From contig LCCV01000002.1 of the NCBI GenBank assembly GCA_000998135.1, forward strand, positions 29,421 to 93,420: a stretch of DNA of 64,000 nt, in the 5' to 3' direction. Source of the DNA: Parcubacteria group bacterium GW2011_GWA2_42_14 (lineage in GTDB: Bacteria > Patescibacteriota > Minisyncoccia > Sungbacterales > GWA2-42-14). Shown piece by piece: positions 1,446 through 64,000 of the stretch. The notes below the pieces were generated by a model. That model had not been told where the DNA came from, made no database searches, and saw nothing but the letters and a program-made list of their open reading frames with translations. The stretch's first letter is position 1; each line of letters starts with the position of its first letter. Made by a program: the position numbers and the translations under genes.

Positions 1446-3288
1446 TTAACGCCCATAAAGGTTTCCGATTGTCTTTTTTACCCTGAAGATGCTCGTCAAT
1501 CAATCGCCTCACCGCCGGATAATGAAAAATGGCGCCACGGTCAATCTTTTCTTTGGATAGACAATCCAGCATAATTTCTTTCAATTCGCCGCGTAGCAGG
1601 CGGGCGGTTGGGATATTGCCCCCCCTTTTTTTGGCTGAAAGAATTTTTTGGGGAAGACGATTCTCCATCAATTTCCTGATAATGTATTTTCCGGTAAAAC
1701 CGCGCATTTTGAATCTTGGCGGCAAGGAATTAGCAAAATCAACAATGGTGTAATCAAGAAGCGGAGAACGAACCTCCAGAGAAACCGCCATGCTAGCCCT
1801 GTCAAAATACGGAAGTATATTTTCCATCATATAAAACTTCTGATAAAAATAAATCGAACGGTCAAGCGGGGACAGATTCTTAACTTCTTTAACTATGCGG
1901 TCAACCGCGGAAAAATCTTCTGTCATACCAAGTTTTATCCTTACATCTTCGGTATATAATTGGCGTTTTTCTTCGGGAGTAAACGCGCCTATCCAGATGG
2001 CATCGCGATAATCAGCGGAATATTCAAGTCCGGCGAAAAACCGCTTTATCTTATAGTCCAAACTTACTTTTCCTAAAGAAGTTGGGAAAAGATTAACTAG
2101 CGGACGAACAATGTTTCGCCGTAAAACTCCGGGGATGGCTGACGCATAGGGAACCAATCGGCCGGCTTGAAAGGTCTGATAACCCATAAAAAGTTCGTCC
2201 CCTCCCGAGCCGCTCAGGGCAACCGTAACGATATTACGAGCAAACTTTGATACGGCATAAATCAAGAAAAGGCCGGTATCAGCAATCGGCTCATCAATGT
2301 GTTTCGCCAATTCAAAAACCATATCTTTAATCTCGTTTGATAAAAGTCGTTTTTCATGATGAACCGTTCCTATCCGGGAAGCGGTAAGACGCGCATCCGC
2401 CATCTCGTCAAAATCCTTATCGGAAAACCCTATGGAAAAAGAATTAAGAGGGCGGCTTGAGAGTTCTTGGGCATAAGAACAAACCGTGCTTGAATCAAGG
2501 CCCCCGCTTAAAAATAGTCCCAAGGGAACATCAGAAACAAGCCGCAGTTTCACTGCCTCTCGAAGCTTTTCATCAAACATTTTAAGACATTCTTCAATGG
2601 TGCCGCGGGAGGGAGGTAACGCAAAAGCTTCTTCCTGGCGATAATATCGGCTTGTTTTAATTTCATCATTTTTAAAAATCAAATAGGTTGCCGGCTCAAT
2701 TTTAAAAATTCCTTGAAATATCGTGCGGGGAGACGGAACGCACTCATGAATTAAATAAAGGTTAAGCGATTCAAGGTCAAGTTCTCTTTTAACCAAGGAA
2801 TGCGATAAAACCGCTTTAAGTTCGGAACCAAAAATCAACGTCCCGCCGAAAATAGCGTAATAAAGGGGCTTTTTTCCGAAACGGTCCCGCGCCAAAATCA
2901 GTTTCTTTTTACGAACATCCCAAATGGCTATAGCAAACATGCCGTTTAATTTTTCAAACATCTTCTCGCCTTCTTCTTCATAAAGATGGACTAATACTTC
3001 CGTATCGGTTCGGGTAGTAAAACGGTGTCTGGGTTCCAAATTTTTCCTTAACTCGCGATAGTTGTAAATTTCTCCGTTGAAAATAATTGCTACGGTTTTA
3101 TCCTCGTTAAAAATCGGTTGATTCCCGGTCTTTAAATCAATTATGGAAAGCCGGCGAAAACCCAAGCCGACTTCATCAGGAACAAAAAAATAACCCTCGT
3201 CATCAGGGCCTCTATGCTTTAGGGTAGCGGCCATGCTCTCAAGTTCTTCACGCGTACCCTTACCCGCGAAACCGGTTATACCACACAA
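1408..3288 (-). CDS. asnB: Asparagine synthetase (glutamine-hydrolysing), AsnB-type.
   Basis: N-terminal Ntn amidotransferase signature LCGITGF (catalytic Cys must be residue 2). PP-loop SGGLDSS is present. Length is about 625 aa. The ORF-track start at 3384 is upstream of the catalytic Cys. The likely real start is TTG at 3286-3288 immediately preceding the Cys codon. Confidence 0.85.
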   Translation of the reverse strand: MCGITGFAGKGTREELESMAATLKHRGPDDEGYFFVPDEVGLGFRRLSIIDLKTGNQPIFNEDKTVAIIFNGEIYNYRELRKNLEPRHRFTTRTDTEVLVHLYEEEGEKMFEKLNGMFAIAIWDVRKKKLILARDRFGKKPLYYAIFGGTLIFGSELKAVLSHSLVKRELDLESLNLYLIHECVPSPRTIFQGIFKIEPATYLIFKNDEIKTSRYYRQEEAFALPPSRGTIEECLKMFDEKLREAVKLRLVSDVPLGLFLSGGLDSSTVCSYAQELSSRPLNSFSIGFSDKDFDEMADARLTASRIGTVHHEKRLLSNEIKDMVFELAKHIDEPIADTGLFLIYAVSKFARNIVTVALSGSGGDELFMGYQTFQAGRLVPYASAIPGVLRRNIVRPLVNLFPTSLGKVSLDYKIKRFFAGLEYSADYRDAIWIGAFTPEEKRQLYTEDVRIKLGMTEDFSAVDRIVKEVKNLSPLDRSIYFYQKFYMMENILPYFDRASMAVSLEVRSPLLDYTIVDFANSLPPRFKMRGFTGKYIIRKLMENRLPQKILSAKKRGGNIPTARLLRGELKEIMLDCLSKEKIDRGAIFHYPAVRRLIDEHLQGKKDNRKPLWALIAFHFWKDNWLS

Positions 3289-3293
3289 GAAAT

Positions 3294-3962
3294 TTAGCGC
3301 ACGCGGTCCTGTTCCTGTTCCTGTCGGAGCTTTAAAATGGTTTCCGATGGAACAAAACCGCGAAGCAACATATTGGGATAACAATAAACTTTTTTTCCAA
3401 GAAATGTAGCCGGCTGGGTTACGGTATTGCAGCCAAGGGAACTGTCGTCGCCGATAATCACGCCAAATTTTTCCAATCCGGTTTTCACTCCGGCAATTAC
3501 AACCTCGCTTCCGGTAACTTTAAAATTGGAAATCTTTGTTCCCGCTCCCAGATTTACTTTATTTCCCAAAATACTATGTCCTACAAACGCAAAATGCGGA
3601 GCTCTCGCGCCGTCCAAAAAAACAGAATTGCCCACTTCGCTAGCGTGTCCAATTACCACATTATTTCCGGCAATTACGTTCGCGCCCACAAAAGCGCCGT
3701 GGCGAATTTCACAATTCTCGCCTATAATAGCGGGCCCCATAATCCAGGCACCGGGCTGAACAACAGTTCCCTTACCCAAAAAAACTTTTTCTCCGACAAA
3801 CGCCCCCGGCATAACAACCCCTTCTGTAGCCGGTTTTAAATTTTTTTCTAAATATTCGGGAAGAAATTTCAAAAAATCAAAAATATAACCGCATCTTTCA
3901 AATAAGCTCTTGTGGGCAAATCGCGATAAATCAAAATAATATGAAAAATCTTTTATTTCCAT
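3294..3962 (-). CDS. Left-handed beta-helix (hexapeptide repeat) transferase, GlmU C-terminal-like (acetyl/acyltransferase).
   Basis: Multiple [LIV]-G-x-x-x-x hexapeptide repeats (GAFVGEKVFLGKGTVV, GPAIIGENCEI, GAFVGANVIAGNNVVIG, and others). Confidence 0.6.
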   Translation of the reverse strand: MEIKDFSYYFDLSRFAHKSLFERCGYIFDFLKFLPEYLEKNLKPATEGVVMPGAFVGEKVFLGKGTVVQPGAWIMGPAIIGENCEIRHGAFVGANVIAGNNVVIGHASEVGNSVFLDGARAPHFAFVGHSILGNKVNLGAGTKISNFKVTGSEVVIAGVKTGLEKFGVIIGDDSSLGCNTVTQPATFLGKKVYCYPNMLLRGFVPSETILKLRQEQEQDRVR

Positions 3963-6139: not shown

Positions 6140-6424
6140 TTAGATGCGCTGGAATGATTTCAAAAAACTAACAAACGTTTTGCCGTACGGAGACAGAGTA
6201 TGCTCCACAAATTTACCACGATATTTTTTGTTGATAAGCCCCGCTTGATAAAGGCGCCTGGTATGTTCGCCTAAGGTTTTCTCATTTGCTCCGAGTGCCT
6301 CAACAATATCCTCAAGGGTTATACCTTCACTCCCCGCAATCAAAAGCAATATCTCAATGCGGTAATGATTCGACATTCCCTTAAGATGCCGCTCCATTTG
6401 TTTTGCCGTCTTCATTTTCATCAT
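6140..6424 (-). CDS. ArsR/SmtB-like winged-HTH transcriptional regulator (small, about 95 aa).
   Basis: HYRIEILLLIAG...LEDIVEALGANEKTLGEHTRRLYQAGLI is a classic HTH_20 layout. The ORF is open to 6559, but that N-terminal extension overlaps a palindromic repeat. The start is more likely the internal MMKMK at about 6424. It is a paralog of 33158..33427. Confidence 0.6.
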   Translation of the reverse strand: MMKMKTAKQMERHLKGMSNHYRIEILLLIAGSEGITLEDIVEALGANEKTLGEHTRRLYQAGLINKKYRGKFVEHTLSPYGKTFVSFLKSFQRI

Positions 6425-6598
6425 ATTTGTATTACACAACATCCTTATATTCTCAAGTTTGTAAGGATGTTGTGGATGTGTTGTAATATTGTATGCTACT
6501 ATCTTAAATTTGTTAGTGTATTGTTTTGATTTTGTTGCGCCAACCCGGTCCCGCTTCATTCTTGTTTTTTAGCTTGAGTATCCATAAATTTATTTAAT

Positions 6599-9498: not shown

Positions 9499-10587
9499 AT
9501 GAAAAAAGAAATAAAAATAGAACCCAATATTTGTAACGTCTGCCAAGAACCCAGGTTACAATATGCTTTCTCCGCCCACGATTATATCACGGACGAAAAT
9601 TTTGAGTTATGGCTATGTCCCGATTGCCAAGCCATGGCAACCATGCCGCGATTAAATGACGAGGAACTGCAAAAATATTATCAAGGCGTATATTATGGCA
9701 GAAGAAAATCATTCGTTGACCAATTTATTAATAACGAAAGGGTTTGGACCATTAAAAAACTTTACAAAACTTATCTCAAAAATTACTCTTTCGGTCATTC
9801 TGCCGCCAGAGGCGAGCCTCGCCTTCGGCGGGAGCGAGGCGAAGAATCTCATGATACTCTATCAAGCGATAAACCTGAGATCCTTCACTTCGTTCAGGAC
9901 GACAATATGTCGATTTTAGATATCGGCTGCGGGAACGGTTTATTTCTAAATGGCCTTAAAAAAATAGGATGGAAAATTGCCGGAACAGAACTCGCGCCGG
10001 AAAGCCATGTGCATCCTGATATATCGCCATTCGTCTGCAACAAGCCGGTTAACGAATGTACTTTTACCGGAGAATCATTTGACATCATTACCATGTGGCA
10101 TACATTGGAACATTTCATAAATCCGTCTCTGTATCTTCGTGATGCTAACAGAATTTTAAAAAGAAGCGGAGTTTTAATTATTGAAGTTCCCAACTTCAAA
10201 TCATGGCAATTTTTGATAACAGGCAAACACTGGTTTCCACTGGAAATTCCCCGACACCGCACACATTTTTCTCCCCAAGCCATTAAAATAATTTTGGAAA
10301 AAACCGAATTTCAGATAGTGCGGATATCCTACGGAAACTTTTTTTATGATGTTTTTGGGTTCACGCAAAGCATATTAAACTCCTTGTGCCGGCAAAAAAA
10401 TATCCTTTTTAATATCTTAAACGGAAAACTTTCTGCTTCTATCAACGGAGTACGAAGCGTATTTGATGTTTTTATAACAGTAGTACTCACTCCCCCGCTT
10501 TCAATTATCGGCATAATATTGTTTTTTATAGAAATCGCGACAAAACACGGAGGAACTATGCGGATTTATTCCAAAAAAACATCATAG
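9499..10587 (+). CDS. Class I SAM methyltransferase with N-terminal Zn-ribbon. Carries an in-frame repeat-derived insert.
   Basis: CxxC...CxxC N-terminus and motif I ILDIGCGNGLF. Nucleotides about 9797-9910 (peptide GHSAARGEPRLRRERGEESHDTLSSDKPEILHFVQDD) match repeat families found elsewhere in the window. Confidence 0.7.
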   Translation: MKKEIKIEPNICNVCQEPRLQYAFSAHDYITDENFELWLCPDCQAMATMPRLNDEELQKYYQGVYYGRRKSFVDQFINNERVWTIKKLYKTYLKNYSFGHSAARGEPRLRRERGEESHDTLSSDKPEILHFVQDDNMSILDIGCGNGLFLNGLKKIGWKIAGTELAPESHVHPDISPFVCNKPVNECTFTGESFDIITMWHTLEHFINPSLYLRDANRILKRSGVLIIEVPNFKSWQFLITGKHWFPLEIPRHRTHFSPQAIKIILEKTEFQIVRISYGNFFYDVFGFTQSILNSLCRQKNILFNILNGKLSASINGVRSVFDVFITVVLTPPLSIIGIILFFIEIATKHGGTMRIYSKKTS

Positions 10588-10640
10588 CAACACCGAGTGT
10601 TGCTAAACCCATTAAGCAACACTCAGTGTTGCTTACGGCT
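10588..10640. terminator. Two tandem perfect hairpins between convergent genes (candidate bidirectional terminator).
   Basis: agcaacaccgagtgttgct and agcaacactcagtgttgct each form 7-8 bp stems. There are no strong T-tracts. The same caacaccgagtg palindrome recurs inside CDS 35352..39356. Confidence 0.35.
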
Positions 10641-16843: not shown

Positions 16844-18331
16844 TTATATCAAGCCGCTGATTTTTTCAAAGATTCTATCAAAATTCCTGACGACATCAAA
16901 AATGGTATTGCCGAAAAGAATGATGAAAACTAAAAATAAAATTTTAAGATTTTTATATTGACCATTTTTAATAAATTTTATAGCTTCCATAATACCTACT
17001 CCGGCAAAAATCGCGAAAAAAGCGTAAGAAGGATAACGATAGCGAGTCTCAACCACAATAAAAACAACCGGCAAAACTACGGCGGCCAGAAACGCTAATA
17101 ACCACATCTTGTTTGTGGTGAAAAACGTGTATGGTAAATCCTTCGACTTCGCTTCGCTGCGCTCAGGAAATAATTTATTGCCTGAACCTGTCGAAGGCAT
17201 ACCTTTCTTTGAACTCCAGATTGCTTCTACAATTCCGTAGAAACCGAAGGTAAAAATAATTACCGACCATAAGGAGGAAAGCGACAAAACGACCGCCTGC
17301 CAAGGACTTCCAAAAAGATACGGCCACCAGCCGGTGGGACGCGCAAAACTAAAATACATGGAAATTCTGAAAAAAGTTATTTTTATGAATTCCAGCGGAT
17401 TAAAAAGTATGAAAATGATAGCTTCTTTTGCCGCCAAACGATCCCCGGTAACCATGTCATAATCATTATATTTAGCGGTAAATTGTATGCGCGAATCGTC
17501 AAGTTCTCCGGACGAGCCGGGGTGATTTCCGGATAAAAGGTCGTCCCCAAACGTTAAACTTGTCGGAATAAAAGCGCCATACACCTTGAAATTGCGGATT
17601 GTCCAAGGAGTCATCACCGCCAGAATGACCGCCGTAAAAATCGCCAAACTGATAAACAATTTCTTTTTGTAAAAAAAATAAATAAAGGGCAAAAAAATCA
17701 AAAGCAAAGGAGTTCTCACAAGAACAGACGCGGCAAAAACAAAACCGAGAAGCGCGGCCAATTTAATGCCCGATTTATCAAGTATGCGAAAAAAAATAAA
17801 AATGGATAACAGCATTAAAAAAATAGCGAGGGTTTCGGCAAGAAGCATGGAACTGCCGATTATTAAATCGGGGTAAAAACCGAATATAACAGCCGCAATT
17901 AAAGCGGCGGCACGCACGTTTAAGGTCGGACCTTCCGCGGAAGGTCCGACCTTTCGCATAATCAAAAAAACCAAAAGAACTGACAAAGCGTGAAATATCG
18001 CCTGCAAGAACCAAACTACCTCATAATGATGCCCAAAAATAAAATAAACCCCCACCAGAAAAAATTCATAGCCCGGGCCTACCCTGCCGATAGAATTATC
18101 TTTTTCAAACGGAAGGTCAAAATTTTGGCGATAACCATGACCATTTAATATATTCACGGCAATACGGTCATAAGCTCCGGCATCAACCGAAGGTTCAATC
18201 TGAAAATAAAAAGAATGGGTCAAAGACAGCAAAAAAGAGGCAAATACAATGCCCCAAAGCAACTTTTTCCAATTCGCATTAACAAAATTCAAAGCACAAA
18301 GCACCAAATCCCAAATAAATTCAAACTTCAA
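16844..18331 (-). CDS. Polytopic membrane glycosyltransferase, ArnT/PMT-like (GT39/GT83). Carries an in-frame repeat insert.
   Basis: N-terminal ...DAGAYDRIAVNILNGHGY... loop and many TM helices. Residues MPSTGSGNKLFPERSEAKSKDLPYT are encoded by palindromic repeat 17130-17215. The annotated N-terminus (MKFEFIWDLVL) lies inside the intergenic IR element 18291-18406, so the real start is probably downstream. Confidence 0.6.
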   Translation of the reverse strand: MKFEFIWDLVLCALNFVNANWKKLLWGIVFASFLLSLTHSFYFQIEPSVDAGAYDRIAVNILNGHGYRQNFDLPFEKDNSIGRVGPGYEFFLVGVYFIFGHHYEVVWFLQAIFHALSVLLVFLIMRKVGPSAEGPTLNVRAAALIAAVIFGFYPDLIIGSSMLLAETLAIFLMLLSIFIFFRILDKSGIKLAALLGFVFAASVLVRTPLLLIFLPFIYFFYKKKLFISLAIFTAVILAVMTPWTIRNFKVYGAFIPTSLTFGDDLLSGNHPGSSGELDDSRIQFTAKYNDYDMVTGDRLAAKEAIIFILFNPLEFIKITFFRISMYFSFARPTGWWPYLFGSPWQAVVLSLSSLWSVIIFTFGFYGIVEAIWSSKKGMPSTGSGNKLFPERSEAKSKDLPYTFFTTNKMWLLAFLAAVVLPVVFIVVETRYRYPSYAFFAIFAGVGIMEAIKFIKNGQYKNLKILFLVFIILFGNTIFDVVRNFDRIFEKISGLI

Positions 18332-19109: not shown

Positions 19110-19178
19110 ATCCCCTACGAATTACGAATGTATTCGAATTACGAATTCGTAATTCGGTTTTATTCGTAATTCGTAGGA

Positions 19179-33512: not shown

Positions 33513-33544
33513 GCCTTATTCTAATGTTCTTGAGAACATTAGAA
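33513..33544. promoter_or_regulatory. Perfect 14-4-14 palindrome TTATTCTAATGTTC-ttga-GAACATTAGAATAA upstream of the ArsR-like gene. Candidate autoregulatory operator.
   Basis: Read directly. The arms are exact reverse complements. A degenerate copy (cttattccaatgttcttaagaacttgagaataa) lies at the 3' flank of the same gene (33148-33182). Confidence 0.5.
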
Positions 33545-33567
33545 TAACACAAAGGGATTAAAAAAAA

Positions 33568-35289: not shown

Positions 35290-35301
35290 TATAAAAATAT
35301 A

Positions 35302-35327
35302 AATTAATTAACGATCGTTAATTAATT
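35302..35327. promoter_or_regulatory. 26-bp palindromic operator-like motif AATTAATTAACGATCGTTAATTAATT, 13-38 bp upstream of the LTD-protein start.
   Basis: Perfect palindrome. Near-identical copies are at 57699-57724 and 58424-58449, each upstream of a minus-strand gene. Confidence 0.5.
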
Positions 35328-35351
35328 TTTCACTTTAAATATGGCCATATA

Positions 35352-38300
35352 CTACGGCAATAAATCCGGCGGAATGGTTTTTATGACATTGGAATCATCA
35401 TAAAAGTCAATGCCGCCGTTGTTTATGAGGTGATGCGAACTATCCACAGCCATGCCGACGCCGTTGTCGCGAAAAATCAAATTGCTTATAGTAGTGGTTG
35501 CGCTGCCGGAAATAACCAAAGCGTAATATTGCTTGCCGGGCAATAAATTGTCCCGAAAAATCGTATCCGTAACGGTGCTTGAGGCATTACTCGCGAGCCA
35601 AACGCCCTTAAACTTATTTTTTTCAATCACGGAATTTTTAATGGTAAGCGGCTCATTGCCGCCGGCCTTGATTCCGGCAAGATTATACCGCTCTTCTTCT
35701 CCTCCGGCGTATCTTATAACGGCGCCGTCAAAAACCGCTTCTCCAGAACCCCAAAAATCAATGCCCCGCCAATGCCCCAAAATCGGCTGGCTGGAAGTGG
35801 CGTCATTATTGGTATCCCCGCCGTATTCATCATCATAAAATGATGTAAAAACAACCGGCTCCTCGAGGGTGCCATTAGCCGAAAAAGCTCCGGCAATGGT
35901 CAAACCGGTATTAGGCATAAATTTAAACACCGCGCCCTTTTCCGCGGAAATATTTCCCGCAAACGTGTAATTTCCCCAATCAATAATATAAGGCAAGTCC
36001 TTGGCAAAAACATGATCATTGCCCGCGTTATTCCTGATAATAATTCCTTTAACGCCGGGGCTGTCGGAAATAACAGTGTTTCCTCCGAATAACGGCGGAG
36101 AACTTTCCGCAATGATAACATTTCCATTTTTATCAAAAGTGTTGTTGCGAACTTCTCCGCCATGTATGTCGGAGGAAAAAATTCCTCCGCCATTTTCCAA
36201 AAATGTATTATTTAAAACTTTTGGAGCAGAACCGGCTATTATCAATGCCTCAAGAGCGTTTTTATAAAATACGCTATTTTCTATGTTCGCATTGCAGTTT
36301 ATACAAGACAAACCCCTAAGCAAAGAGTGCTCAAGGCGTGAATTTTTAAACGAAAGAGCCGCGCTTGTGATATAAATCATGGCCCTTCTTTTAAACGGCA
36401 AATTATTATCCATATTTCCACCGTATCTGAAAAACGTGTTTAAAAATTCCGAACCGGAGCTTTCCAAATTAAAAGTGAATTGCCTCCAATTGCCTGCTTG
36501 AGGGCATATCGCGGTTGAAGAAGCGTTTAACGGGTCGCAAACGCCATCTTTATTGGTATCTCCGCCGTATTCATCATCATAAATGCCGGTAAAAACAATT
36601 GGCTCTTCGGGCGCGCCTCGCGAAAAGATTTTTCCGTAAACATTAATAATTGCCCAATAATCATTAGGCGGCATAATCTTTATAACCACGCCCGGCTCAA
36701 TATTAAGAACAGCGCCGTCTCTTATAGTTAAACCCGCTCTTCGGATAAGGTAAGGAGAATTTTCTTTGGTCAGAATTCTATCACCAGTCAAATTTCCGTC
36801 AACGGCAATCAAATAATTAACGCTGTTTCTGGCTTTGGGAGTACCATAAACCGGCCCGTCCTCGGCGTTTTTGTTAATATTGACTATTTCCTCTTCAAAA
36901 TAAGTCCCCCAGTTTGCCTGCGTTTCACCCGGAGCGTCCGGGTCAATTCTTTCCATAGAAAATCTTGCTAACAAAATACCTGCGCACCAGCCGGTAGGGC
37001 GCGAGCGATCCCATGGACAAAGTTCCGGGGTTCTATCAATGGTTCGGCTTGGCTCACCACTGGCGGTCGTAGAACCTTTTTCCAGTTTTAAAATCATTCC
37101 GTTGTCATCAAGCCCCGCGCCGAACGAAGCGATAAAATCGGCCTTAATAATTGATACGGCGTTATCATCATCACGCTCAATCAAATAATAACTTTTGGGC
37201 GCGATTTTACCGGAAAGATTGATTATTATTTTTGGCTCGGGCTCGCCGGGCTTAAAAAATTTCAACTGCCAACCGGTTAAATCAATTTCGGCTTCAGAAC
37301 GGCTCTTTAACTCAATCCATTCATCTTCACTGGTGGTTGCCGAATTGCCGGTTCCCGCCCAGGCGATTTCGTTTATAATGACCGGCATTTGATTTATTTC
37401 TAAGATTTTTACAATTTCAGCCGATTCATTTCCGGTTTTATCTTTGGCTTTAGCGCGAAATTCATAAAAAGTGTTTGGGGAAGCAGTAAAAATAAATGAT
37501 GTCGCAAACGGCGCGGTTGACGACGCCGTTGAGGTCGAACCTCCCATGGGAGGTTCGACCTCTATAAATTTCAGAAAATCGTCGCAATCTTGCCACGGCT
37601 GGCTTGTTTTTTGACGATAAGCGCAATTTAGGAAAAAGGACGCAATATCTTCGCTATTGGACTCCAAAAAAATCGTAAGAGTGGTTGTAGCAATAACGCA
37701 ATCAGTTTGAGAAAAACTGTCAGAACATTCCTGAATGTTCAAAGAAATGTCCGGCGGAGTAGTATCGGTCGTTGTAGTAGCAACACCGAGTGCTGCTGAC
37801 GCTTCAGCATCACTCGGTGTTGAAGCTTGAACCGGCGCAACATATTCCCCGCCCGCGCCAGCTATAAAATCACCCAAAGCATAAGGAGGAGGCGGAGGCG
37901 GAGTTGAAGTAGCAACACCGAGTGTTGGCATTGGTAGAAAAACACTCGGTGTTGAAGTGGCTGCAGGAGCCAAATCTAAAGTTTCAGAATCTATGGAGGT
38001 TGAACCTCCATAGATTTGAGGAACGGGCTCAATATCGGAGGTTTCCGAAATGGTTCGACTCGACTCACCATAAAAAGAGCCGAAATTCGCGATTTCGTCA
38101 TCAGCAACACCGAGTGCTGCCGACGCATCGGCATCACTCGGTGTTGACAACTCCGTTGTCGACTCCGTACTCGTAATAATCGCCGCTGTGTAAGAAGTGT
38201 TACTGTCTGAGCTTGCTTGCCCGTCCAAGTTTTCCGCAGAAAAGTTGGTCAGGGTCGAGAACAAACTACTTGTCCAATTCCACGCTTTCTGCCACCACGA

Positions 38301-39356
38301 GCGGTTTTTAAACCATAATTCCTTTGTTTGCTTTTCCTTTTCCACTTCGTCAAAAAAGAGCTTAACCACCCCGGCGCCGTTAATAACCGCCTGTTTTGAC
38401 AGCAAATTCCAGTAGTCGGTGAGGATGAGGTTGTCGTCGTCAGCAATAGAAAACTTGTTTTTGTTGTCTTTAGGATTCAACAAGTAATACCATCCAAAAG
38501 ATACATCCGACATTACAATATGATATTTTTTATCACTCAAAATACGATAACCAAATAATACGGATAACCCATTTGATAACTGTTCTTCTTCATAAAAACT
38601 TACATCTGGTTTAATAAATAAATCTGAAAAAATAGTATCTTTACTAAAAAAATTATTATTTGAATAGTTTGCCGTTGCATCAAAATAACTACTGATATTT
38701 GATAAAACATATGGTTTTTTACCGCTTTCTATAAGCTCGGCAACCGTATTTAAATTTTCCGGAGAAAATTTTCTGGTCCAATCTTCATAAGGACTTGAGT
38801 TTAAAACTTGAGAATGTTCAAACAGGCCAGCATGACCATCATTACGGGTATGTTCAGGCACAGTTGCGTCTTCCAAAAGATGTAATGTATGCCCCAATGA
38901 CTCCAATCCCCTATTTTTATCTACCCAGGCATAATCGTAAATCGCCCTTTCCCATGAATAATCCGAAGGCGATGAAAATAGGTCAAAAATTGAACCATAA
39001 GTTTTGTCGCGAAACACTCCGTCTTCCTGGGCTTGAGCCAAGGTGTTTTGCGACCAGTCTTTTGAGCTTTCCCAGCTCTCGCCAAGTATAGTAAGACCGC
39101 GATTATAAATCGGGTCGTAAAAATGGTGAAGCCATCTTGTCTCTTCGTCTTCATCAATGCTTCCATTCATTAAAATCGCAATCTCTTCGCTATTTAAGGC
39201 CTTTTCCTGATAATTGTGATTAAAAAAACGGCCGATTTCTTTGGTTAAAGCCGGATGAGTGGTTTGATCGTCATAGGCAAAAACAAGAATGGGCAGAAAT
39301 AAAACAAATACTGCCGCCCCAATCGCTGATATTGTGTGGGAATACTTCGATTGCAT
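35352..39356 (-). CDS. Very large (1334 aa) secreted surface protein with a lamin-tail domain, right-handed beta-helix/pectate-lyase-like repeats and Ala/Ser-rich repeated linkers.
   Basis: N-terminal signal peptide. LTD motif VIINEIAWAGTG...DEWIELKS...DLTGWQLK. Repeated NNTF-type beta-helix segments. Three repeats of PSDA[ED]ASAALGVA. Confidence 0.65.
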   Translation of the reverse strand: MQSKYSHTISAIGAAVFVLFLPILVFAYDDQTTHPALTKEIGRFFNHNYQEKALNSEEIAILMNGSIDEDEETRWLHHFYDPIYNRGLTILGESWESSKDWSQNTLAQAQEDGVFRDKTYGSIFDLFSSPSDYSWERAIYDYAWVDKNRGLESLGHTLHLLEDATVPEHTRNDGHAGLFEHSQVLNSSPYEDWTRKFSPENLNTVAELIESGKKPYVLSNISSYFDATANYSNNNFFSKDTIFSDLFIKPDVSFYEEEQLSNGLSVLFGYRILSDKKYHIVMSDVSFGWYYLLNPKDNKNKFSIADDDNLILTDYWNLLSKQAVINGAGVVKLFFDEVEKEKQTKELWFKNRSWWQKAWNWTSSLFSTLTNFSAENLDGQASSDSNTSYTAAIITSTESTTELSTPSDADASAALGVADDEIANFGSFYGESSRTISETSDIEPVPQIYGGSTSIDSETLDLAPAATSTPSVFLPMPTLGVATSTPPPPPPYALGDFIAGAGGEYVAPVQASTPSDAEASAALGVATTTTDTTPPDISLNIQECSDSFSQTDCVIATTTLTIFLESNSEDIASFFLNCAYRQKTSQPWQDCDDFLKFIEVEPPMGGSTSTASSTAPFATSFIFTASPNTFYEFRAKAKDKTGNESAEIVKILEINQMPVIINEIAWAGTGNSATTSEDEWIELKSRSEAEIDLTGWQLKFFKPGEPEPKIIINLSGKIAPKSYYLIERDDDNAVSIIKADFIASFGAGLDDNGMILKLEKGSTTASGEPSRTIDRTPELCPWDRSRPTGWCAGILLARFSMERIDPDAPGETQANWGTYFEEEIVNINKNAEDGPVYGTPKARNSVNYLIAVDGNLTGDRILTKENSPYLIRRAGLTIRDGAVLNIEPGVVIKIMPPNDYWAIINVYGKIFSRGAPEEPIVFTGIYDDEYGGDTNKDGVCDPLNASSTAICPQAGNWRQFTFNLESSGSEFLNTFFRYGGNMDNNLPFKRRAMIYITSAALSFKNSRLEHSLLRGLSCINCNANIENSVFYKNALEALIIAGSAPKVLNNTFLENGGGIFSSDIHGGEVRNNTFDKNGNVIIAESSPPLFGGNTVISDSPGVKGIIIRNNAGNDHVFAKDLPYIIDWGNYTFAGNISAEKGAVFKFMPNTGLTIAGAFSANGTLEEPVVFTSFYDDEYGGDTNNDATSSQPILGHWRGIDFWGSGEAVFDGAVIRYAGGEEERYNLAGIKAGGNEPLTIKNSVIEKNKFKGVWLASNASSTVTDTIFRDNLLPGKQYYALVISGSATTTISNLIFRDNGVGMAVDSSHHLINNGGIDFYDDSNVIKTIPPDLLP

Positions 39357-40217: not shown

Positions 40218-41687
40218 ATGAAAATGATGCTAACTTTACGGCAAAAACAAATACTGGATTTTGTTGCCACCTACGCGCATAAACGGAAAATTGCCCCCTC
40301 GCTTGAAGAAATCAAAAGGCATTTTCGGCTAAAATCGGTTTCAAATATCCATCAGCACCTCAATGCTTTAGCGGCCAAGGGCTATTTAAACAGGTTCAAA
40401 AACCGGAAACGCGGCATTGAGCTCCCCCAATCCGAACGTCTCGTAAAAATACCGCTCTTGGGAGAAATTGCCGCAGGCAAACCGATAGAAGCAATAGAAC
40501 ATAAAGAGTTTATCGCGGTCCCCGAGTCAAAATTGGCTTCAGGCGGGGAAATTTACGCCCTTCGCGTAAAAGGAGACAGCATGATTGACGAACATATAAA
40601 TAACGGGGACACAATTTTAATAAAAAGGCAGAATGTCGCCGAAAACGGCCAAAAAGTGGTAGCGCTCCTTAACGGAAATGAAGCAACGCTTAAAACTTTT
40701 TACAAAGAAAGGGGGCAGATAAGATTGGAGCCGGCCAATAAAAATTATCAACCCCTCATAATAAAAAGGGGGCAGGAGTTTTCTTTGCAGGGCGTTTTAC
40801 TTGATGTAATAAAAACAAATGAGGATGAATGGCAAACAAAACCTTTTACATTGCCAGCCGAAGAAGGAAAAGGGCGACAAACTATTACTTTTCAAAAAAT
40901 CCCTCCTTATTTTGAAGAACGAAATTTTATTTTATATCATGGAGATTGTGTCGGCGTTCTTGCACAACTGCCGCCAGAATCGGTTGATATGATTTTTGCC
41001 GATCCTCCATACAATCTTTCCAATGATGGATTTTCGCTTCACGCCGGCAAAAGAGTTAGTGTAAATAAAGGAAACTGGGATAAGAGCAAGGGGTTTAAAG
41101 ATGACTACGATTTTCATTATCGCTGGCTCAATGCCTGCAAAAATATTCTAAAGCCCAACGGCACTCTTTGGGTAAGCGGAACATACCACTCAATTTATCA
41201 ATGCGGCTACGCGCTGCAATCTCTTGGTTATCACATATTAAATGATATTTCATGGTTCAAACCAAACGGCTCGCCGAATTTGAGCTGCCGTTATTTTACG
41301 GCCTCACACGAAACTTTGCTCTGGGCGCGAAAAGACAAAAAAGCGAAACATTTTTTCAACTATAATTTAATGAAAAAAGGGAATTGGCCGGAAGATTTTA
41401 TTAAAAAACCAAACCTGCAAATGCGTTCGGTTTGGGCGATTTATCCGCCTAAAAAGCCGGAAAAAACTTTTGGCAAACACCCAACGCAGAAGCCGCTAGA
41501 ATTATTAAAGAGAATTATCCTTGCATCAACAAACCCCGGCGCCGTCATTCTTGACCCGTTCACCGGAAGTTCCACAACGGGAATTGCCTCGGAAATAATA
41601 GGAAAAAGAAAGTTTATCGGAATTGATACTGATAAAAAATATCTCGAACTATCCGTAAAACGCTTTAAAGAGATTATGACGACATAA
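40218..41687 (+). CDS. Fusion protein: complete LexA-type repressor (wHTH plus S24 autopeptidase) fused to a beta-class (DPPY...FxGxG) N6-adenine/N4-cytosine DNA methyltransferase.
   Basis: N-terminal 200 aa: LTLRQKQILDFV... wHTH, cleavage-site region LLGEIAAGKPIEA, catalytic Ser in VKGDSMIDE and Lys in GNEATLKTFYK. C-terminal 270 aa: motif IV MIFADPPYN (41001-41012), then ...WVSGTY..., and C-terminal motif I ILDPFTGSSTTGIA. This is a single uninterrupted 489-codon ORF. Confidence 0.8.
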   Translation: MKMMLTLRQKQILDFVATYAHKRKIAPSLEEIKRHFRLKSVSNIHQHLNALAAKGYLNRFKNRKRGIELPQSERLVKIPLLGEIAAGKPIEAIEHKEFIAVPESKLASGGEIYALRVKGDSMIDEHINNGDTILIKRQNVAENGQKVVALLNGNEATLKTFYKERGQIRLEPANKNYQPLIIKRGQEFSLQGVLLDVIKTNEDEWQTKPFTLPAEEGKGRQTITFQKIPPYFEERNFILYHGDCVGVLAQLPPESVDMIFADPPYNLSNDGFSLHAGKRVSVNKGNWDKSKGFKDDYDFHYRWLNACKNILKPNGTLWVSGTYHSIYQCGYALQSLGYHILNDISWFKPNGSPNLSCRYFTASHETLLWARKDKKAKHFFNYNLMKKGNWPEDFIKKPNLQMRSVWAIYPPKKPEKTFGKHPTQKPLELLKRIILASTNPGAVILDPFTGSSTTGIASEIIGKRKFIGIDTDKKYLELSVKRFKEIMTT

Positions 41688-43180: not shown

Positions 43181-44041
43181 TTATTTTTTTAGCGCGTCAA
43201 TCTCTGCTGCGACTGCCTTATTATGGGGGTCTAAAGCAAGGACTTTTTGGTAATACTCAAGGGCTTTGGGGAAATTGCCCTGTTCTTTATAAAAACGGGC
43301 GAGGTAGCTTAAAAGGGTTTGGTTGTCGGGGTTGGCGGCGAGACCGGATTCAATTATTTTTATAATTTTGTTGCTTCTCGACTCGCCTGCGGGTTCGCTC
43401 GAAGAATATAAATCGGCAAGGGCTGTATATGGATAAATATCGCCCGGAGCATTCTCTATGGCCTTCTTATAGCTTAATTCGGCCTTAGGATAGTCCTTAA
43501 GATATAAAGCGTATAATCCACCCAGATTAGCAAAAGAGGTGGAATTTTGGGGCCTGATGAGTGAGGCATACTCCCAGGCGTCCCGCGCTCCCAAATAATC
43601 GCCGAAAAATTTCTTAATTACCCCGGCTCTTAACCAATTATCAAGATTATCCGGGCTTTCGGAAACGAATTTGGCAATGTCCAAAAGTTCATTTCTTAGC
43701 TTGGTTTTGACATCTTCAGGATAAGCTAAAACGACGCTTTTATCTTCGTTTACGGTTCCGATTGGGGCGCCATTGTATTGAGGAAGCGTAGGTAATTCTG
43801 TTGGTTTTACAACTTCACCGGACAAGTCACGACCTTCTTTGCGGACAAGGTCGGGACTTGATTGACCGACAAGACCCGGTCTTTTTTCCTCAAGGTCGGG
43901 CCTTAAAACGTCACCGAAAAAATAATAGCCGGAGGCGATAAAGGCCAAAAATAATAAAATAACGAGGTCGCGGAGGAGTAGATTTTTTGTTGAATTGGAC
44001 ATGTTTTTATTAATAGGTATGACTTCGACGAAATCAGGCAA
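43181..44041 (-). CDS. TPR-repeat protein with N-terminal TM anchor.
   Basis: N-terminal hydrophobic helix. C-terminal TPR-like repeats (WEYASLIRPQNSTSFANLGGLYALYLKDYPKAELSYKKAIE...ALEYYQKVLALDPHNKAV). Confidence 0.6.
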   Translation of the reverse strand: MPDFVEVIPINKNMSNSTKNLLLRDLVILLFLAFIASGYYFFGDVLRPDLEEKRPGLVGQSSPDLVRKEGRDLSGEVVKPTELPTLPQYNGAPIGTVNEDKSVVLAYPEDVKTKLRNELLDIAKFVSESPDNLDNWLRAGVIKKFFGDYLGARDAWEYASLIRPQNSTSFANLGGLYALYLKDYPKAELSYKKAIENAPGDIYPYTALADLYSSSEPAGESRSNKIIKIIESGLAANPDNQTLLSYLARFYKEQGNFPKALEYYQKVLALDPHNKAVAAEIDALKK

Positions 44042-57305: not shown

Positions 57306-57614
57306 TTATCCGGATTCTCCGCCTTCGTCATTAGAACCATCAAGTTCTTTGGGTTCTTCTTGTTGAACAATAAGTTCACGGGGGTCACAATCTTCCACTC
57401 GCGCAATTTCGCGTAAATTATCCACCATCATAGATTTGTAAGGATGAACCAATTTTTTAATTGCCGCAACAACTTGCCTTGGGGTAAGACCGTCAGGCAT
57501 CAAGCAAATTTCGTCAGGTTTTGGGTGCCGTTCTAACCACCGTGCCCAAGCCGCAATAATTTCTTCGTCCGTTCGCTCAACGTAGGCCATGTTGCATCTC
57601 TCCCTTATTTTCAA
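57306..57614 (-). CDS. Small hypothetical protein.
   Basis: ORF only. The likely start is the internal MAYVERTDEE. Palindromic motif 57699-57724 is upstream. Confidence 0.35.
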   Translation of the reverse strand: MKIRERCNMAYVERTDEEIIAAWARWLERHPKPDEICLMPDGLTPRQVVAAIKKLVHPYKSMMVDNLREIARVEDCDPRELIVQQEEPKELDGSNDEGGESG

Positions 57615-57698
57615 AGATACTCTTCAAACATAAGATTGAGAAATAAAAAAGTCAAACACCTAACCCAAAAGAAAAGTGTTTTAAACATTTTTTAAAAA

Positions 57699-57724
57699 AA
57701 TTAATTGACGATCGTTAATTAATT
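57699..57724. promoter_or_regulatory. 26-bp palindromic operator-like motif AATTAATTGACGATCGTTAATTAATT.
   Basis: Copy 2 of the motif family (see 35302 and 58424). Confidence 0.5.
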
Positions 57725-57779
57725 TTTAAATATCTCCATATACATATACCGATTAACTCACACCATCAAACCGCTATTA

Positions 57780-60665: not shown

Positions 60666-60842
60666 CGCTTGTTATTAAAAACACCGCTTATGAGCGGGTC
60701 TTAGATAAAATATTTTATCTTTCCCCGTTCGGTCTTCCTTCGCACGAAGCTTCGGAGGACGAGGATGGATTTAGCACCACATTAACACCTTTTGTTAATA
60801 GGCTGCTGGCGGTTCATTGAGCCAAAACTCTCCCCGCGCTCT
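60666..60842 (-). ncRNA. SAM-I (S-box) riboswitch with terminator in the metK leader.
   Basis: Minus-strand sequence: tttatcaagag (P1 5') ... ggggagagttttggctcaatgaacc ... gtggtgctaaatcc (conserved GUGCUAAAUCC) ... cgaagcttcgtgcgaagg (P4 hairpin) ... aaagataaa (P1 3'). It is followed by hairpin cccgct-cata-agcgg plus a T-tract. Confidence 0.6.
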
Positions 60843-61181
60843 TGATAAATTATTCAATTTTTATAAAACCATCATACTATGAAACGCGAAATGCGCAAGA
60901 AAAGTTATCCACCCCGTTAGAAGTTCGAAAATACACATTGATTTAAAAAATGACACAAAGCGAAAGCGGCTTACCCCGTTAGAAATCCAGCAACATGTCA
61001 ATTACGGCATAACGACGCGGAGCGAAACGGCTCCGCCTTACGTCTTTCTGAATAAAATAAGCTTTTTAAAGATTTCTAACGGGGCTTACGCCTTATGCCT
61101 GTGTCTGAATATGGCCACCCTTAAACCTCTAACGGAGTAAACAAAAACAAAAGGCCCCGAAATGAGGCCCAAGACAAATTA

Positions 61182-63411: not shown

Positions 63412-63540
63412 ATTAAAAATTGCCGCCGGATTTAGCCCCGCGGTTTTTTTATACAAAGTACTTTATAATTTTGTGGCGTGAACAAAAACATTCTAATATT
63501 CTCCTTCCAGAGGCGGGCAGGCAAGAATATTAGAATGTTT

Positions 63541-64000
63541 TTAGGAACTTTTTTTGAAGCGTGGAAACCGAAAGGATGATGGACACAATTTGCTCAAAGG
63601 GCATAAATCACAACGAGGGTCTTTGGCGGTACAAATAGCGCGGCCGTGGTCAATCAAACGATAAGTTGTTTTGAACCATTCTGATTTTGGCAAAAGTTTC
63701 ATTAAATCCTGTTCAATTTTTACGGGGTCATCTTTTTCAGTCAGACCGAGCCGTTGGGAAAGACGGCGAACATGAGTATCAACAGCAATCCCCTCAACCA
63801 CGCCGTAGGCGTTTCCCAAAACCACATTAGCGGTTTTTCGCGCAACCCCTTTCAGAGTTAACATTTCCGGCATGGTGCGCGGGAGTTTACCGCCAAATTT
63901 ATCACGGATAATTTTTGCCGTTTCCAGAATATTTTTTGCTTTGGCGCGATAAAACCCAGTTGACCTAATCATTTTTTCAAATTTTTTCAAGGGAAGCGCG
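63541..64000 (-). CDS. nth: Endonuclease III (Nth), 3' part only. The gene continues past the window end.
   Basis: HhH-GPD region LPGVGRKTANVVL-like (LKGVARKTANVVLGNAYG) and C-terminal [4Fe-4S] loop CTAKDPRCDLCPLSKLC. The reading frame is open to position 64000 with no start in the window. Confidence 0.8.
   Translation of the reverse strand, partial: ALPLKKFEKMIRSTGFYRAKAKNILETAKIIRDKFGGKLPRTMPEMLTLKGVARKTANVVLGNAYGVVEGIAVDTHVRRLSQRLGLTEKDDPVKIEQDLMKLLPKSEWFKTTYRLIDHGRAICTAKDPRCDLCPLSKLCPSSFRFPRFKKSS

Follow-up and report, generated by a model that had tools for sequence, protein, structure and literature searches.

Short in-frame palindromes in a lamin-tail protein gene of a Parcubacteria bacterium: probable members of two related families of mobile mini-palindromes

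The window analysed here is a stretch of 64,000 nucleotides from the Parcubacteria group bacterium GW2011_GWA2_42_14 (contig LCCV01000002.1, positions 29,421 to 93,420), and it contains a large gene whose product of 1334 amino acids consists of an N-terminal domain, a low-complexity linker, a lamin-tail domain (LTD) and right-handed beta-helix repeats, with Pfam matches to LTD, Beta_helix and NosD. The protein is 100% identical to the NCBI entry 'hypothetical protein A3G49_04995 [Candidatus Sungbacteria bacterium RIFCSPLOWO2_12_FULL_41...]'. Within this LTD gene, 620 bp hold five perfect or near-perfect hairpin palindromes, which fall at residues 404-610, in the hypervariable linker (residues ~385-530) and, for one insertion, within a Cys-rich domain. 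In this study the palindromes are assigned to two related families, A and B, and they are probably copies of mobile mini-palindromes that tolerate translation and are themselves probably selfish.

The initial annotation of the gene had claimed five palindromes, and all of them exist at coordinates a few bases off those first given (Table 1). The 32-bp perfect palindrome, placed before at about 37534-37565, lies at 37531-37562. It is laid out as AGGTCGAACCT, CCCATGGG and AGGTTCGACCT with one extra pair per side, encodes (I)EVEPPMGGSTS and matches the family A pattern, whose short-spacer copies in metagenomes encode EVGPPYGGPTS and EVEPPYRGSTL. This copy is located within an insertion which is missing from most homologues and common only to a homologue of 46% identity. 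What had been read as a 23-bp palindrome at about 37992-38014 is really one of 29 bp, and it encodes QIYGGSTSIDS. The three compound hairpins are present as exact 45-nt units with a 12-bp outer stem (CAACACCGAGTG/CACTCGGTGTTG). The inner stem of copy 3 has 6 bp (TGCTGA/TCAGCA), and that of copy 1 (TGCCGA/TCGGCA) differs from it by a compensated pair. The peptide PSDA[ED]ASAALGVA had been ascribed to each hairpin, but STPSDA[DE]ASAALGVA is encoded by the first and third units only, since the interior of the middle unit differs and reads STPSVFLPMPTLGVA. Because the flanks of the three units are unrelated to one another and each unit is exactly 15 codons long, they look like separate insertions, which on the sequence at hand fits better than a segmental repeat.

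For the chance occurrence of such structures, the gene was subjected to 300 synonymous-codon shuffles keeping the protein and its codon usage, a hairpin being counted when its stem is at least 12. The shuffled sequences give a mean of 0.01 and a maximum of 1 hairpin versus 5 observed, so the over-representation on which the initial annotation had staked its claim is borne out; shuffles of the codon order in the linker never yield a hairpin of this stem length. Likewise, CAACACCGAGTG with at most 2 mismatches has 9 matches versus 1.67 expected, a number reached by 0 of 100 shuffles, and folding of the mRNA segment 37500-38170 gives z = -12.45 relative to dinucleotide shuffles. Two assemblies made independently, at NCBI and at JGI, carry the gene with identical DNA, and the exact protein is found on 7 contigs.

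Table 1. Palindromic elements in the 64-kb window and the genes that carry them.
Feature	Position	Strand	Location	Description
LTD/beta-helix host gene	35352..39356	minus		From ORF list and Pfam
Family A element	37531..37562		LTD host gene	32-bp perfect palindrome GAGGTCGAACCTCCCATGGGAGGTTCGACCTC
Family B copy 3 (gene order)	37779..37823		LTD host gene	45 nt = 15 codons; encodes STPSDAEASAALGVA
Family B copy 2	37911..37955		LTD host gene	45 nt; 14-bp stem, 14-nt loop; encodes STPSVFLPMPTLGVA
Single family-A-like unit	37988..38016		LTD host gene	29-bp perfect palindrome (14+1+14) with AGGTTGAACCT at centre
Family B copy 1 (gene order)	38103..38147		LTD host gene	45 nt; encodes STPSDADASAALGVA
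Family B element	10585..10635		Intergenic, between two convergent genes	
GT39/PMT_2-like membrane glycosyltransferase gene	16844..18331	minus		
Second in-frame GT39 insertion	17140..17197		GT39/PMT_2-like gene	Compound hairpin CCTTCGAC...TCAGGCAATAAATTATTTCCTGA...GCGAAGC...GTCGAAGG
Family A element	17922..17953		GT39/PMT_2-like gene	32-bp perfect palindrome AAGGTCGGACCTTCCGCGGAAGGTCCGACCTT
Family A element, slightly decayed	43824..43859		TPR gene 43181..44041 (minus), N-terminal linker	Encodes SPDLVRKEGRDL
Family-A-like element, decayed	43871..43904		TPR gene 43181..44041 (minus), N-terminal linker	Encodes LRPDLEEKRPGL

Both families have the same build: a 13-nt self-palindromic unit, a short spacer of 4-18 nt, and the inverted unit, the two units differing only at the central base(s). 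The unit reads N-AGGTC-S-GACCT-N' in family A and AACAC-YSR-GTGTT in family B, and hairpins such as CAACAC-CGA-GTGTTG ... CAACAC-TCG-GTGTTG follow the same doublet logic as family A. In the 32-bp palindromes of the LTD and GT39 genes each half is a small palindrome (X-CGR-X'), so that their arms repeat each other in inverted and also nearly in direct orientation. An element measures ~30-45 nt (28-45 nt over the whole range), and all six frames of its arms are free of stop codons. The anatomy was quantified on 128 distinct family A copies among the metagenome matches listed. The free base of the search pattern is paired as Watson-Crick in 126 copies, as G-T in 2 and as A-C in 0. The stem is exactly 13 bp long with sharp edges, in that the pair bordering the fixed 11-mer is Watson-Crick in 96% of copies with variable identity, while the next pair further out is so in only 37%. 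Four-way symmetry is found in 106 of the 128, which makes N-AGGTC-S-GACCT-N' a palindromic unit in its own right. The loop has mostly 10-11 unpaired nucleotides and the core 36-37 nt. No target-site duplication was detected for k = 1-5, flanking direct repeats being at chance level, and the flanks show a symmetric depletion of G on the left and C on the right, with no tag. A genome-wide excess of CGA/TCG-loop mini-hairpins was considered and rejected, none being found beyond the elements themselves.

The whole window was also scanned for perfect hairpins. The intergenic double hairpin between two convergent genes shares the 15-mer CAACACCGAGTGTTG with the LTD gene, as the initial annotation had stated, although it spans 10585-10635 and not 10588-10640; it is built as GCAACAC-CGA-GTGTTGC, a 12-nt spacer and GCAACAC-TCA-GTGTTGC. 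The palindrome AAGGTCGGACCTTCCGCGGAAGGTCCGACCTT in the glycosyltransferase gene has the same layout as GAGGTCGAACCTCCCATGGGAGGTTCGACCTC, with all differences symmetric, and codes for KVGPSAEGPTL, which lies in a loop with hydrophobic segments on either side; this peptide and EVEPPMGGSTS are ordinary members of the short-spacer subtype of family A. In the TPR gene, the slightly decayed copy is composed of AAGTCCCGACCTT, 10 nt and AAGGTCGTGACTT with 1 mismatch, and the peptide of its decayed neighbour is comparable to RSDLEEFLRSDL in the ArgS gene of locus L171. The second insertion in the GT39 gene appears to belong to another repeat family. An Rfam search of the window at gathering threshold gave a SAM riboswitch as sole match (RF00162, 63.6 bits, 60712-60851, minus strand); as this is unrelated and no tRNA was found, a tRNA, tmRNA or Rfam identity of the palindromes was rejected.

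Outside the window, the family B pattern ACACCGAGTG-N12-24-CACTCGGTGT was searched in GTDB contigs with one genome per species and found at 84 loci, where ~7 matches are expected by chance according to our own estimate. Patescibacteria lineages make up 41 of the 80 loci listed with names (Saccharibacteria, Vogelbacteria, Paceibacterota, Zambryskibacteria, Gracilibacteria and Parcubacteria); a single genome of ~1 Mb often has 4-6 loci, and the scattered single matches in other phyla are compatible with chance. A further 13 matches come from Chloroflexi, many of them terminator-like with A-run/T-run flanks. The Chloroflexi genomes L036, L048, L062, L063, L066, L071 and L072 each have several copies of the ACACCGAGTG...CACTCGGTGT stem, and the stems with such flanks look like a repeated family of bidirectional terminators. 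For the gene-internal copies, which lack T runs, a role as intrinsic terminators was rejected. The family A pattern is present at more than 119 metagenome loci among the matches listed. Viral contigs of IMG/VR contain 1 and 0 matches to the two patterns, and with this near absence a phage origin was rejected.

The two families are dispersed over unrelated genes and genomes, and, taken together, over half of their copies stand in frame inside long reading frames. When a copy is counted as intragenic inside an open reading frame (ORF) of at least 150 residues with at least 30 residues on each side, 77 of 130 family A copies (59%) among the matches listed and 38 of 87 family B copies (44%) are located in long ORFs, with all three codon phases used. 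Ten hosts were confirmed by NCBIfam, namely PheT, IF-2, TsaD, LigA, ArgS, TopA, Tgt, enolase, NiFe hydrogenase and UvrB, and further host ORFs are Fmt, Def, GatA, trigger factor, CopA-type ATPase, cysteine desulfurase, MnmA, pyruvate kinase and DnaE. Family A typically encodes RSDLKNSKRSDL, KVGPWDPLRSDL, QGRTLGIQKGPTF or EVGPPRGGPTS, and family B TPSVKDAQHSVL. The proposal that mobile palindromes were recruited into the coding sequence is in the main correct, in that both families lie at many unrelated loci in many genomes, but nothing shows a recruitment to build linkers, and the palindromes are no property of surface proteins, for the same elements are in frame in housekeeping genes. At loop positions that hold family A or B elements in orthologues, other insert peptides also recur, for example LRGVSQTDGPRGSA.RAR.DSDPE, GPVR.REGSQRPS and PSPSQGEGVG...PLLKGEGV, at L166 and L196 (TsaD), L155 and L137 (CopA-type ATPase), L140 (trigger factor) and L188 (LigA), and these are probably further repeat families in coding regions of the candidate phyla radiation (CPR).

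A direct empty-site test on the LTD gene found no close orthologues in the database: the gene family is widespread in Parcubacteria, but the nearest relatives reach no more than 46% and 43% identity, and the linker is unalignable at these values. Neither relative has a family B unit, and the number of ASAALGVA units, proposed before as a check, is zero in both; the 46% homologue has a doublet of the family A type of its own, GAAGTCGGACTTC-N9-GAAGTCCGACTTC, elsewhere in the linker. For the comparison, GT39 and housekeeping genes were used instead. Close GT39 orthologues have 84%, 73% and 64% identity, and in two of them, L001 and L005, a palindrome stands at the same codon position. That of L001, AAGATCGGATCTCCCGCGGGAGATCCGATCTT, is a perfect 32-mer with three symmetric double substitutions relative to the window copy, two of which are also mutually compensatory within each unit and hence amount to a four-way change. 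That of L005 has one compensated change and a single C-to-T without compensation, so that the sense strand has a U-G pair there. Distant Patescibacteria homologues (~45% identity) have ~6 residues fewer at this loop. These comparisons indicate that the hairpin is a lineage-specific addition, the self-complementarity of which was maintained while its sequence drifted. The GT39 orthologue of L006 has an extra palindrome-containing insertion of 50 residues, and a DDE transposase (DDE_Tnp_1/DDE_Tnp_4) is encoded just downstream of it at 3002-3916.

Filled and empty sites at orthologous positions are found in other genes too. In three closely related hydrogenase genes, an identical family B element of 36-39 nt occupies site 1 in L079 and site 3 in L086, and each of these sites is empty in the other genome. 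The inter-domain site of TopA is empty in L091, filled with family A in L190 and L124, and filled with family B in L088. For enolase, comparison with solved structures places the residues encoded by the element as extra loop residues in the linker after the N-terminal domain. At hydrogenase site 2, three orthologues carry three different units, ACACCGAGTGT, ACACCCGATGT and ACGCCAGGCGT, all self-complementary and four-way symmetric, and ACACCCGATGT is found again in the GT39 insertion of L006. Together with AGGTCGGACCT, AGATCGGATCT and AAGTCGGACTT, these units are discrete 'dialects' conserved across CPR phyla, and the sequence comparison seems to point to replacement or conversion at the site, beyond stepwise compensatory mutation. 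Spacers are conserved as well, TGGGGATTCAAAA being common to IF-2 and TsaD, and TGTCAGTAAACA occurring in three different ORFs. Moreover, a module GAGGAGC-GAA-GCGGGAAA, which includes the mini-hairpin motif GCGAAGC, makes up the loop of the family B copies in L079 (1178-2467) and L076. In ~15 family A copies from unrelated genes, including L169, L111, L108 and L124, the same module stands in two parts on either side of the core, GGCGGGAAA|A-core|TGAGGAGCC, which could be nesting or circular permutation. Both orientations of the family A loop occur with respect to these flanks. That the flanks are a target site was rejected, as they occur in unrelated genes.

We thus regard it as probable that the palindromes are copies of translation-tolerant mobile elements, and the following scheme would account for them. 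A copy landing in a tolerant loop or linker, with an added length divisible by three, would be translated and add ~10-15 residues. The low-complexity linker of the LTD protein would then be a permissive sink that accumulated five copies, and the elements would be selfish or neutral rather than useful. Since the lack of target-site duplications and the hairpin architecture fit it, movement may proceed by an enzyme that recognises single-strand hairpins and leaves no such duplications, in the style of HUH/RAYT (REP-associated tyrosine transposase, as for the REPINs discussed below) or of IS200/IS605. The complementarity of the arms might be kept by arm-to-arm templated correction, which in E. 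coli is known as quasi-palindrome correction, by replacement with other copies or by selection.

Several observations weigh against this interpretation. Different elements recur at the same loop of orthologues (the TopA site, TsaD and hydrogenase site 2), which could mean site-specific turnover or selection, not random insertion. No population-level insertion polymorphism was observed, no transposase was found among the 15 window ORFs scanned with Pfam, and no mobilising enzyme was identified; in particular no RAYT gene was found in the 64 kb of genome at hand, for which the search for RAYT/IS200-type genes was not exhaustive. The core is usually not a multiple of three in length, so that a requirement for this was rejected, and in several filled-versus-empty comparisons the net gain is ~6 residues, about half an element. 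From these two facts the true insertion boundaries are undefined, and part of the palindrome could be host-derived. In addition, four-way covariation and arms conserved across phyla could equally reflect a protein-binding or structural function.

Such a function is the most serious rival, although we consider it unlikely. It holds that the dispersed elements are kept as the binding site of a dimeric protein, as a tag akin to those for DNA uptake in bacteria presumed to depend on competence, or as an mRNA hairpin, which may pause ribosomes at domain boundaries or control mRNA stability. The units are conserved across CPR phyla as discrete dialects, the covariation preserves mini-hairpins and the long hairpin alike, the elements often stand in inter-domain linkers or loops, the z-score given above marks a strongly structured mRNA, and one orthologue has the U-G pair on its sense strand. 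However, the spacers are conserved with the units and the copies are extra residues, whereas uptake signals arise by point mutation; all codon phases are used and the loop lies in both orientations relative to conserved flanks; the many unrelated host genes have no common theme; non-Watson-Crick pairs are nearly absent, compared with the common G-U pairs of selected RNA helices; and decayed copies exist. An origin without any mobility, by repeated local template switching during replication in low-complexity, weakly constrained coding sequence, is improbable and in our judgement largely refuted. It would explain perfect palindromes and net gains of about one arm (~6 residues), the 'empty' TopA site of L091 does hold the unit-like GGTCTAGAC, and arms that are both direct and inverted repeats allow slippage to create or delete doublets. 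Yet the same arms and spacers are shared by unrelated genes and contigs (TGGGGATTCAAAA, TGTCAGTAAACA and the 36-nt hydrogenase element), and hundreds of copies of two specific 11-13-mers exist; a recurrent protein motif, for its part, is argued against by the use of three codon phases.

It had also been suggested that the palindromes mediate recombination, by inversion, deletion or duplication, and in this way vary the surface protein. The arrangement allows it: units 1 and 3 are inverted repeats of 42 nt, 86% complementary and 282 nt apart, and the three units are also direct repeats with spacings of 132 and 192 nt, both divisible by three, so that slippage would give in-frame length variants. 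The suggestion is nevertheless unsupported and very improbable. The gene is identical in all assemblies found, with no length polymorphism among the 7 contigs that carry the exact protein, the LTD orthologues have no such units, and single copies reside in housekeeping genes, where variation would do harm. Moreover, only 37922..38176 is listed among plus-strand ORFs for the segment of units 1-3, which suggests that the stretch from unit 1 to unit 3 offers no continuous open frame on the reverse reading and that its inversion would break the reading frame, as judged from the ORF listing and not from the frame register. As to an artefact of assembly or amplification, for example chimeric fold-back reads, perfect palindromes are a known class of such errors, and the likelihood is practically negligible here, because the independent NCBI and JGI assemblies agree in sequence and the protein recurs on its 7 contigs; a palindrome with compensated differences is conserved at an orthologous site in three other metagenomes, and hundreds of in-frame copies come from unrelated data sets.

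Elements of comparable kind are known elsewhere. Ogata et al. reportedly described in 2000 the Rickettsia palindromic elements (RPEs), palindromic repeats of ~100-150 bp restricted to Rickettsia that are said to lie in frame in protein genes, including essential ones, and to be translated as extra surface peptides. The elements here resemble them in being in-frame insertions that preserve the ORF in a reduced-genome bacterium, but they are far shorter at 28-45 nt, length being the only property compared in this respect, and they are doublets of a 13-nt palindromic unit with unrelated sequence, spread across Patescibacteria phyla. RPEs are also mentioned in passages of PMC1779305. Repetitive extragenic palindromes (REPs) are imperfect palindromes of 20-40 bp with a GTAG or CGTC tag, extragenic by definition, and in the REP doublets forming hairpins (REPINs) the doublet of inverted units is the apparent replicative form, mobilised by RAYT, with solo units as its remnants (PMC3116915, PMC3733652). 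The hairpin doublet of inverted units, the lack of target-site duplication and lineage-specific variants are common to both, while the unit here has 13 nt and no GTAG/CGTC tag, and 59% of A and 44% of B copies reside in long ORFs rather than outside genes. From MITEs (miniature elements of transposable kind with inverted repeats), which are DDE-transposase derived, they differ in lacking target-site duplications (k = 1-5), though inverted termini are present. The small dispersed repeats (SDRs) of cyanobacteria, reported by Elhai et al. in 2008, are said to be hairpin-forming sequences of 21-27 nt that are apparently mobile and can nest inside one another. To our knowledge they are not systematic in-frame residents of housekeeping genes, and while they are likewise very small hairpin-forming repeats, they belong to another phylum and have other sequences.

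Mitochondrial hairpin elements, namely double-hairpin elements, the repetitive hairpin elements (RHEs) of sponges (PMC2800124) and the GC clusters of yeast (PMC4478555), invade compact genomes and sometimes coding regions, and translated genes of Nematomorpha contain perfect inverted repeats of up to 284 bp (PMC6649704). These are organellar, and in Nematomorpha both arms encode conserved protein regions, not extra loop residues. The PARCEL elements (palindromic amphipathic repeat coding elements) of Mollicutes are palindromic DNA which codes for recurring peptide modules in the surface proteins of bacteria with minimal genomes (PMC2996958). They form tandem repeat domains of specific surface proteins, in contrast to the dispersed single insertions in housekeeping genes found here. 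The DNA uptake sequences (DUS) of Neisseria and the uptake signal sequences (USS) of Pasteurellaceae are abundant motifs of ~10-12 nt, often present as inverted pairs, which have lineage dialects and arise from point mutation. The families here are similar in their short abundant motif, in being tolerated at permissive coding positions and in their lineage dialects, but their copies are insertions with conserved spacers that add residues, and not products of substitution.

In-frame palindromic repeat elements as such are already known; for elements like the present ones, no earlier description from CPR/Patescibacteria was found in the full-text literature searched, which is an incomplete collection. 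As a more tentative proposal, to which we give slightly less than even credence, the two families may represent an undescribed superfamily of Patescibacteria, the smallest coding-compatible mobile elements known, being doublets of a 13-nt unit without target-site duplications that reside in loops of essential proteins in several CPR phyla. As a part of this proposal and just as tentatively, the four-way-symmetric dialects may imply an enzyme recognising the unit or a hairpin-templated copying.

Other palindromes and genes of the window were noted in passing. A 28-bp perfect palindrome, AAATTAATTAACGATCGTTAATTAATTT, lies at 35301-35328 between two LTD genes and is nearly identical at 57696-57727, upstream of the minus-strand gene 57306..57614; the two copies may represent a common operator or promoter element. 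A single plus-strand ORF at 40218-41687, directly upstream of the LTD gene cluster, joins, according to Pfam, a LexA DNA-binding domain, an S24 peptidase and an N6/N4 DNA methyltransferase, which is an unusual architecture. The gap between a GT2-like and a methyltransferase gene contains nested palindromes of CGAATTACGAAT units with a 16-bp outer stem (19114-19177). In an ArsR/MarR-like gene (6140..6559, minus strand), a hairpin with a 13-bp stem, CACAACATCCTTA...TAAGGATGTTGTG, at 6435-6474 has a sequence unrelated to those of the two families. Long intergenic hairpins at 33516-33547 and 63484-63542 have arms of the TTCTAAT(A/G)TTCT type and may be a terminator-like repeat family.

If the elements are mobile, they would be far smaller than RPEs, REPINs and MITEs, and would show that even streamlined CPR genomes of ~1 Mb tolerate selfish DNA inside essential genes. 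With their strict covariation, both two-way and four-way, they are well suited to a study of how palindromes are maintained, in which templated correction and selection are set against each other, and the unit dialects could be used as lineage markers. Gene callers and homology tools should expect palindrome-encoded inserts of 10-15 residues in CPR proteins. Mobility of these elements would also explain a part, at the least, of the so far unexplained short insertions and low-complexity linkers of CPR proteins, which hamper alignment, phylogeny and structure prediction.

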